NCBI RefSeq assembly: GCF_024502345.1
Contig: NZ_JALDNN010000001.1
Reading direction: 5' to 3' (one strand)
DNA: 64,000 nucleotides
DNA from: Escherichia coli
Lineage (GTDB): Bacteria > Pseudomonadota > Gammaproteobacteria > Enterobacterales > Enterobacteriaceae
In this document: in pieces, positions 43,680 to 45,254 of the stretch
How the letters are laid out: each line of letters starts with the position of its first letter
Position numbering within the stretch: the first letter of the stretch is position 1
Made by a program: the position numbers and the translations under genes
Notes under the pieces: model-generated
What the model saw: the letters and a program-made list of their open reading frames with translations, nothing else
What the model was told of the DNA's origin: nothing
Database searches by the model: none

Positions 43680-43970
43680 GCGTGGCGATTTCATGTTCAA
43701 CCCCTTGTGTGGATGCAGATTATTATAATCCTCTATCTATTCTGCCATTGTTTCCATCATTTAGACTGCATCCAGCAGATCATCTACGTACACATAATCC
43801 CGCTTGAACGTCTTTACAAACGATTCTGCCATGCCGTTACTTCCCGGACTGCGTACTGGTGTAGTACACACGATGAACCACAGTGAACTAGCGAATGTGC
43901 GCGTGGCATCGGCTGTGCAGCAATTATGCCAATGACACTGGCTCCATTGACGGCAATGACCTGACATCTA
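43680..43970 (-). pseudogene. 3' fragment of an IS3-family transposase
   Basis: Short frame with integrase C-terminal signature (NGMAESFVKTFKRDYVYVDD); no IS ends or orfA. Confidence 0.45.
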
Positions 43971-44127
43971 CAATCCCGCTACAAAGCATTTACTCCATGA
44001 GTCATTGCACTTGCTGAGCTACACGAACACACTAAAACCAGATAATAATTAATCGCTGTATAAGCTCGTAACAAGCGGAACTTTAAGGCAAAATAGGGCC
44101 ATCTTCCACCTTCACAAAGTTACGCTA

Positions 44128-45254
44128 ATGGCCAGAAAACCTAAAGAAATCAAAACAGACCCGTTAGAGGTCATCCTGTGGAAAGCGGCTGACAAGCTAC
44201 GTAAGAACATTGATGCAGCCGAGTACAAGCATGTCGTGCTGGGCCTGATTTTCCTTAAGTATATTTCTGATTCTTTTGAATCTCATTATGAGTTGCTGAA
44301 GGCTGGTGAAGGCGAGTTCGCAGGCGCTGACCCGGAAGATAAAGACGAGTACACCGCTTACAACATTTTCTTGTCCCTGAGCTTGCACGCTGGAGCTATC
44401 TAATATCTAAGGCAAAGCTACCAGAAATCGGTAAGCTGGTTGATGATGCTATGGAGCTTATCGAAGCGGGTAACCCACAGCTAAAAGGTGTGCTGCCGAA
44501 AGTCTACGCTCGCCAGAACCTCGACGCAACTGTGCTGGGTGAACTGATAGATCTGATTGGCAACATTGCACTGGGAGATGCCAAAGCGCGTTCTGCTGAT
44601 GTATTAGGCCACGTATTCGAATACTTCCTTGGTGAATTTGCACTGGCAGAAGGCAAACAGGGCGGTCAGTTCTATACGCCAAAATCCATCGTAAGCCTGC
44701 TGGTTAACATGCTGGAACCCTATAAAGGCCGAGTCTTTGACCCTTGCTGCGGTTCCGGTGGTATGTTCGTTCAGTCAGAAAAATTTGTTGAAGCGCATCA
44801 GGGAAATATTGACGATATTTCGATTTACGGTCAGGAATCCAACCAGACCACCTGGCGTCTGGCAAAAATGAACCTGGCTATCCGGGGTATCAATTCAGAA
44901 CACGTCCGCTGGAACAGTGAAGGCTCATTCCTTAACGATGCCCACAAAGATCTAAAATCTGATTTTATCATTGCCAATCCACCGTTTAACGTGTTTGACT
45001 GGTCCGGTGAGCAGCTTCGTGGCGATGCCCGTTGGCAATACGGTATCCCACCTACCGGGAATGCTAACTTTGCCTGGATGCAGCATTTTCTGTATCACCT
45101 GTCGCCAAAAGGTCAGGCTGGTGTTGTACTGGCAAAAGGGGCTTTAACAGAGGGAATATCGGCGGCAGCGGGCATCGTTAACTTAAGATACAAAAGATGT
45201 CCGGAAATGGAGGGGCAAGATCAGTTTAATAATATCTCATCAACTCTCATGTAA
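44128..45254 (+). pseudogene. Second Type I methyltransferase gene (hsdM), frameshifted and 3'-truncated
   Basis: Two consecutive frames (44128..44403 HsdM N-terminal domain; 44451..45254 with [10 protein letters not shown] and NPPF motifs), then divergence from the HsdM pattern; no hsdS or hsdR follows. Confidence 0.65.

Follow-up and report, generated by a model that had tools for sequence, protein, structure and literature searches.

In Escherichia coli, defence islands are located at integration hotspots of the pan-genome, and the occupied hotspots have been mapped (Hochhauser et al. 2023; PMC10121019). Intact hsdM-hsdS-hsdR loci that are related to the locus studied here are present in other E. 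coli strains, among them PapRG-04-4 and ET210 (WP_032343002.1 and WP_161654339.1, respectively). These loci encode an HsdM protein of 515 amino acids, HsdS and an HsdR protein of about 1079 amino acids, and their HsdM is annotated as 'MULTISPECIES class I SAM-dependent DNA methyltransferase [Enterobacteriaceae]'. The island of PapRG-04-4, which is located at ssrA, contains an integrase, a recombinase, two ParB genes, an IS fragment, hsdM (515 aa), hsdS, hsdR, IS1 and ankyrin genes; its hsdR gene carries an internal stop. In ET210, RES, sce7725, sce7726 and then TIR and caspase-family genes precede the IS fragment, which is followed by an intact hsdM-hsdS-hsdR set, IS1, ankyrin genes and a relaxase gene. 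In LR-58-1, hsdS is split by IS903B, and the same fragment as in the two other strains lies upstream of the hsd genes. The ancestral arrangement was an IS2-group fragment followed by hsdM, hsdS, hsdR, IS1 and the ankyrin genes. The intact relative is a standard HsdM with an N-terminal and an N6-adenine methylase domain, as in the solved HsdM subunits: It is by far closest to the Type I methylation subunit 3khk (E 1.6e-142), and the HsdM proteins of EcoR124 (7bst, E 4.8e-40) and EcoKI (2ar0/2y7c, E ~7e-18), which represent the classical E. coli families, are more distant. In the EcoKI and EcoR124 complexes, the C-terminal region of HsdM is needed for the assembly with HsdS.

Our work has identified a remnant of such a locus, which is very probably a non-functional fossil of a Type I hsdM gene that stems from a mobile defence island and was inherited dead. 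The window, i. e. the whole stretch of 64,000 nucleotides that was analysed, is an E. coli chromosome segment around the tRNA-Leu(CAA) gene leuX (52282-52366, minus strand). An integrase gene (50842-52092) adjoins leuX. The right side carries lptG/lptF, pepA, holC and valS, as judged from ORF sizes and gene order, and the left side carries uxuA/uxuB-type genes with 97-99% identity to the leuX-fim-uxu region of E. coli. The hsdM remnant sits within the leuX island in an IS-rich stretch with IS1 (38210-38977), IS3 (39416-40673) and two copies of IS903B in opposite orientation about 15 kb apart (32275-33335 and 48544-49604). It was correctly called a second Type I locus in the first-pass annotation, as a complete hsdM/hsdS/hsdR set is present at 8757-15645. 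In this first Type I locus, the M subunit is unusually long (784 aa) with only a partial match to the NCBIfam hsdM model, and the genes hsdS (424 aa) and hsdR (1087 aa; 12382-15645) come next.

The hsdM remnant extends over positions 44128-45149 on the plus strand and consists of two adjacent ORFs with homology to HsdM. Alignment to the intact 1548-bp hsdM gene of PapRG-04-4 (L001), which is 99.5% identical at the DNA level, locates the lesion: One T of ATTTTCTTTG is deleted at 44371/44372 (TTT to TT), in codon 82 as counted from the ATG at 44128. The first ORF (44128-44403, plus strand) encodes 91 amino acids, i. e. native codons 1-81 plus 10 out-of-frame codons before the stop, and matches the HsdM_N domain (Pfam PF12161, E 9.5e-14). 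The native frame is open again from 44373, and according to the DNA alignment and the Pfam N6_Mtase match the second piece (44373-45149, plus strand) corresponds to residues 83-341 of 515. The second ORF (44451-45254, plus strand), whose first ATG at 44451 is the native M109, encodes 267 amino acids and matches N6_Mtase (PF02384, E 6.5e-70) only at profile positions 2-191 of 311. It also matches the PADLOC MTase_I model (E 6e-101), and it keeps motif I (DPCCGSGG; ~44741-44764) and motif IV (NPPF; ~44976-44987). The succession of HsdM_N and N6_Mtase, the motifs I (DPxxGxGG) and IV (NPPF) and the 99.5% identity assign the remnant to the HsdM family by descent. The homology to hsdM ends abruptly after position 45149, i. 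e. after codon 341 of 515, and the C-terminal 174 residues are lost. Foreign sequence makes up the last 34 codons of the second ORF, with the stop codon at 45252-45254.

Thus, the central observations of the first-pass annotation, namely two frameshifted pieces of hsdM, the loss of HsdM similarity near the 3' end and the lack of hsdS and hsdR downstream, hold true, with the refinement that the native hsdM sequence ends at 45149 rather than 45254 and that an IS stub and an autotransporter gene follow instead. The alignment to intact hsdM and the search for an intact version in related genomes that had been proposed there both gave a clear answer: The former placed the frameshift and the truncation, and the latter found hsdM with hsdS and hsdR in PapRG-04-4 and ET210. 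There is no uninterrupted hsdM ORF (about 515 aa in this lineage) in the remnant, nor is the catalytic domain complete: About 120 profile positions of this domain and the whole C-terminal region are lacking. No hsdS or hsdR gene was found downstream of the remnant; hsdS is present after hsdM in L001, L003 and L006. Likewise, there is no hsdR between 45150 and leuX, and the sole hsdR gene of the window, at 12382-15645, is part of the other Type I locus. The remnant is an ordinary pseudogene that comprises the front two-thirds of a Type I methylase. Judged from this gene anatomy, with neither a specificity subunit nor a nuclease and with a methylase that lacks its C-terminal third, the locus is predicted to have no function as a restriction system. 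A phase-variable or programmed frameshift at the T run was considered as well and rejected: The run comprises only 3 nucleotides, it is invariant in 324 genomes, and no downstream hsdS or hsdR is there to be regulated.

The truncation point itself is informative. Codon 341 of hsdM is joined directly to the last 74 bp of an IS2-group element (45150-45223, plus strand), as recognized from the identity to the 3' ends of IS3-family elements. This stub is 96-98.6% identical over 74-81 bp to the 3' ends of annotated E. coli IS3-family transposase genes, it encodes the final 11 residues of OrfB (11/11 in blastx), and it ends exactly at the right terminus ...GGGGCAAGATCA (...GATCA), as seen in a complete copy of the element in strain ABWA45 (L027); nothing else of the element is left here. 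Since hsdM runs into the interior of the IS rather than into one of its ends, 45149/45150 is a deletion or illegitimate-recombination junction and not an insertion junction. No microhomology was seen at 45149/45150, which therefore does not indicate the mechanism. Downstream of the stub, the upstream region of an autotransporter gene (45224-45317, plus strand; identified by reading the sequence) supplies the last codons and the stop of the chimeric second ORF. In strain C 236-04A, an unrelated IS lies 17 bp upstream of the same autotransporter start. The autotransporter gene itself (45318-48506, plus strand; Pfam Autotransporter, AC_1 and Pertactin) is intact and encodes 1062 amino acids, including a PDN repeat tract. 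In the intact islands, its place is taken by hsdS and hsdR; in the window, IS903B is next (48544-49604). The length of the PDN tandem repeat varies among the carriers (1062, 1074, 1086 and 1089 aa). The gene is a single ORF in the window, it is split or truncated in L009, L010 and L012, and it is interrupted by IS3 in the complete genomes H31-H33.

A second, different piece of an IS2-group element lies upstream of the remnant. The first-pass annotation had noted the 3' fragment of an IS3-family transposase just upstream of hsdM. This is indeed a minus-strand OrfB fragment of the IS2 group, and its start is near 43618 rather than 43680, as judged by eye. The 3' terminal fragment (~43618-43913, minus strand; identified by blastx and the RefSeq annotation of a homologue) consists of the last ~81 codons of OrfB and a putative right inverted repeat: The segment 43671-43913 aligns to OrfB residues 194-274 of 281 with 48% identity and two in-frame stops in blastx, and the putative repeat, TGGAGTTGTCCC... 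on the plus strand at ~43618, was placed by eye against the IS terminus in the ABWA45 copy. The match to Pfam rve_3 is weak, and RefSeq describes the homologous stretch as 'integrase core domain-containing protein; internal stop; missing N-terminus'. Of a complete IS3/IS2-group element with OrfA/OrfB, an rve DDE domain and two inverted repeats, only this fragment is present, with one terminus recognizable by eye. In about 276 complete E. coli genomes, an intact hsdM is preceded by this same fragment; these genomes hold the full-length sequence corresponding to 43400-45149, and none of them holds the junction. Since the fragment is also found beside intact hsdM, it is not the cause of the decay; the link between the transposase fragment and the decay that the first-pass annotation implied does not hold, and the fragment is an old feature of this island family that had no part in the loss of the system. 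Moreover, the idea that the two inverted IS2-group pieces that flank the truncated hsdM are derived from one element, by way of a composite transposon or an inversion, was rejected: Their amino acid identity is 48%, and the upstream piece is also present at the intact loci.

How specific are these lesions for the window strain? Among 5,426 complete E. coli genomes that were searched, 324 carry this hsdM allele, and none of the 324 has the deletion in codon 82 or the junction, a pattern that could point to an error or to a private event. The junction sequence was not found among genome contigs that represented one genome per species. A scan of metagenomes with the junction sequence identified one contig, L005, with the same junction. 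Exact-sequence look-ups with the two protein products gave a different picture: The 91-amino acid product was found in 325 assembly-index blocks and on 161 public contigs, and the 267-amino acid product in 87 blocks and on 44 contigs. Both exact products occur in isolate genomes and in many gut metagenomes. From these look-ups, we fetched 19 independent loci (L007-L025) of different isolates and gut metagenomes, studies and assemblers. The deletion is present in all 19 loci, and it is combined with the junction in 18 of them (all except L014). Several of the fetched loci are 99.9-100% identical to the window over 43236-45149. When the IS3 insertion is left out, the window segment 38978-48543 matches L009, L010, L012 and L016 with at least 99.8% identity, and the junction-bearing module is 99.8-100% identical across L007, L009, L010, L012, L016 and L021. 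The copy in L015 has diverged from the window by 7 SNPs over 1.9 kb. The module is found at two or more chromosomal sites: in the leuX region (L007-L011), on the hypE-fhlA-ygbA side (L015/L019), and by a DUF6538 integrase (L021-L023). At the ygbA site, an OLD-TOPRIM ATPase and UvrD helicase pair (Gabija-like; L015/L019, ~4588-8461) precedes the hsdM allele, and in L014 a DUF87/HerA-type ATPase pair does so (L014/L026, 4838-7737); these loci illustrate the swapping of cargo upstream of a constant hsd segment. Since deletion and junction are common to 18 loci and many contigs, the decay is not specific for the window strain. Most likely, this strain inherited or acquired the remnant already dead, i. 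e. it is a shared fossil of an old loss.

The first-pass annotation had suggested that the strain carried and then lost a second Type I system. The remnant is indeed that of a Type I system, but with the same lesions in 18 of 19 other loci the loss cannot be assigned to this strain. A recent loss of a working system in the window strain might be deduced from the 99.5% identity of the remnant to intact genes and from the neighbouring defence-like genes, which were struck by IS3 and IS1, with an IS3 insertion that is strain-specific. The recurrence of both lesions in 18 further loci from independent assemblies, on 44-161 contigs and in several contexts argues against it, and the 7 SNPs by which the L015 copy already differs over 1.9 kb indicate that the event predates the strain. 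We thus regard a recent loss as very unlikely. The same observations bear on the idea that hsdM is actually a single ORF and that an error of sequencing or assembly produced the frameshift. The deletion affects a short T run, and it is absent from all 324 complete RefSeq genomes with this allele, as might be expected from an error; however, it is found in 19 fetched loci, the exact 91-amino acid product occurs on 161 contigs, and even a repaired gene would end at codon 341 without hsdS and hsdR. The probability of an artefact is therefore negligible, and an assembly error that conceals an intact gene followed by hsdS and hsdR, which had been named as the finding that would overturn the first-pass annotation, is excluded by the repeated lesions and by the truncation itself.

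It is tempting to ask whether the remnant has acquired a new role, with the hsdM'/IS-stub DNA serving as a control or transcription-entry region of the autotransporter gene or with a new activity of the 267-amino acid methylase-like protein. All loci with the junction have the autotransporter linked to the hsdM remnant, and the second ORF retains both the SAM-binding motif I and NPPF. Moreover, the ends of IS3-family elements can carry parts of outward-facing promoters, such as the IS2/IS3 junction promoters, which would also speak for such a co-option. In a scan of 43500-45400 for promoters and terminators, however, nothing exceeded the expectation from shuffled sequence: Promoter-like sites were no commoner than in shuffled sequence, and no such site was found on the plus strand within 45150-45317. 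In addition, the second ORF is devoid of about 120 profile positions and of the C-terminal region, and the autotransporter gene is split in L009, L010 and L012. The persistence of the linkage is explained by recent common descent, as the copies are 99.8-100% identical and thus too alike for a test of selection. Co-option is therefore highly improbable; if it were true, the supposed fossil would be a used part, with the block kept as a unit.

For the fossil that we favour, L014 suggests an order of events. This locus, which is located at the ygbA site, combines the codon 82 deletion with an untruncated 3' end of hsdM and a subsequent hsdS gene. Its hsdM differs from that of the window by only 2 SNPs and has window-specific alleles in common with it. 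Since L014 is frameshifted but untruncated, it is likely that the frameshift came first and the truncation second; this order rests on a single metagenomic scaffold that could be a strain chimera or a recombinant. A search for an intermediate that precedes the large deletion, using the 407-amino acid ORF of L014, found only L014, the scaffold of which ends in hsdS, and an arrangement of hsdMSR, the full IS and the autotransporter was found in no genome. In L007, L008 and L009, the autotransporter is still followed by ankyrin genes, just as hsdR is in the intact islands, and this fits an in-place replacement of the hsdM 3' end, hsdS and hsdR by the IS stub and the autotransporter. The junction could equally stem from recombination between two islands. 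We propose the following scenario: (i) A 1-bp deletion in codon 82 would have inactivated hsdM. (ii) Later, an illegitimate deletion or replacement would have removed codons 342-515 of hsdM, hsdS and hsdR, and would have fused what was left of hsdM to the right-hand 74 bp of another IS2-group element that lay upstream of the autotransporter gene. (iii) The module of hsdM', the 74-bp IS stub and the autotransporter would then have spread; it is found today, nearly unchanged, in many E. coli strains, among them the window strain, where it sits in the leuX island.

The decay affects the whole island and not hsdM alone. The general idea of a turnover of defence genes that the first-pass annotation put forward fits; the neighbouring sce7725/sce7726/RES module is broken, too. 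The window and ET210 have the sce7725/sce7726 part and the hsdM part in common. In ET210 and other loci, sce7725, sce7726 and the RES-domain gene form a conserved trio, which looks like a candidate defence module; sce7726 matches NCBIfam NF033832 and the PADLOC 'cII' model. The sce7725/sce7726 pair of the window (38978-42140) is disrupted: IS3 has inserted into sce7725 with a 3-bp target duplication, IS1 cuts the same gene, and no RES gene is left. This IS3 insertion belongs to the arrangement of the window strain only. The adjacent segment 42141-43235 is very AT-rich (~30-32% GC) and includes an ORF of 133 amino acids (42534-42935, minus strand) that has no match in Pfam, NCBIfam or PADLOC. 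Nearly all carrier loci have kept this ORF (called with 121-127 aa) upstream of their hsdM remnant, and in ET210 the TIR and caspase-family genes stand in its place. The surroundings have been rearranged as well. The IS903B pair brackets uxuAB, the decayed island and the autotransporter. In other carrier loci, the homology to the window ends exactly at 48543, and this sharp stop suggests that the DNA on the right of the autotransporter was rearranged or deleted in association with IS903B. At the other end, only ~58 bp of gntP are left, and the homology to L007 ends at 37801 (window 37744-38977). There is no fim operon between uxuA and the island, where other E. coli strains have gntP and the fim genes; the genes for type 1 fimbriae are probably missing at the leuX-region locus in the window strain.

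In itself, the remnant matters little. It is a clean and dated example of the decay of island defence cargo, by a point frameshift and the subsequent deletion of the remainder of the operon, and a dead remnant can travel with its island to many strains and several integration sites. For annotation and for the counting of defence systems, this means that the presence of a remnant in a genome does not show its loss by that strain, and that the nearest transposase fragment is not necessarily the cause of decay.

The remnant is already annotated in public records: E. coli UMEA 3052-1 has a remnant with identical products of 91 and 267 amino acids, the same junction and the autotransporter downstream, and the products are deposited as EQW25485.1 ('type I restriction-modification system subunit M N-terminal domain-containing protein') and EQW25484.1 ('hypothetical protein G902_04687'). 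As compared to such deposited remnants, the window differs only in the surroundings, with the IS3 in sce7725, the removal of RES by IS1, and the IS903B after the autotransporter. Our analysis adds the exact positions of the lesions, it identifies the junction partner, and it shows that the upstream fragment is irrelevant and that the decay is ancestral and widely shared. With the intact loci, the window shares 96.5-99.5% DNA identity over 43236-45149 as well as the same upstream fragment and intergenic region; it differs from them by the 1-bp deletion in codon 82 and by the loss of codons 342-515, hsdS and hsdR, which are replaced by the IS stub and the autotransporter. Compared to the solved HsdM subunits, the copy in the window is a fragment only. 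As in the defence islands described by Hochhauser et al. (PMC10121019), Type I restriction-modification genes are found here together with other defence-type genes in an integrase island by a tRNA gene, flanked by transposable elements; unlike in the occupied hotspots of that study, the cargo of the window is degraded.
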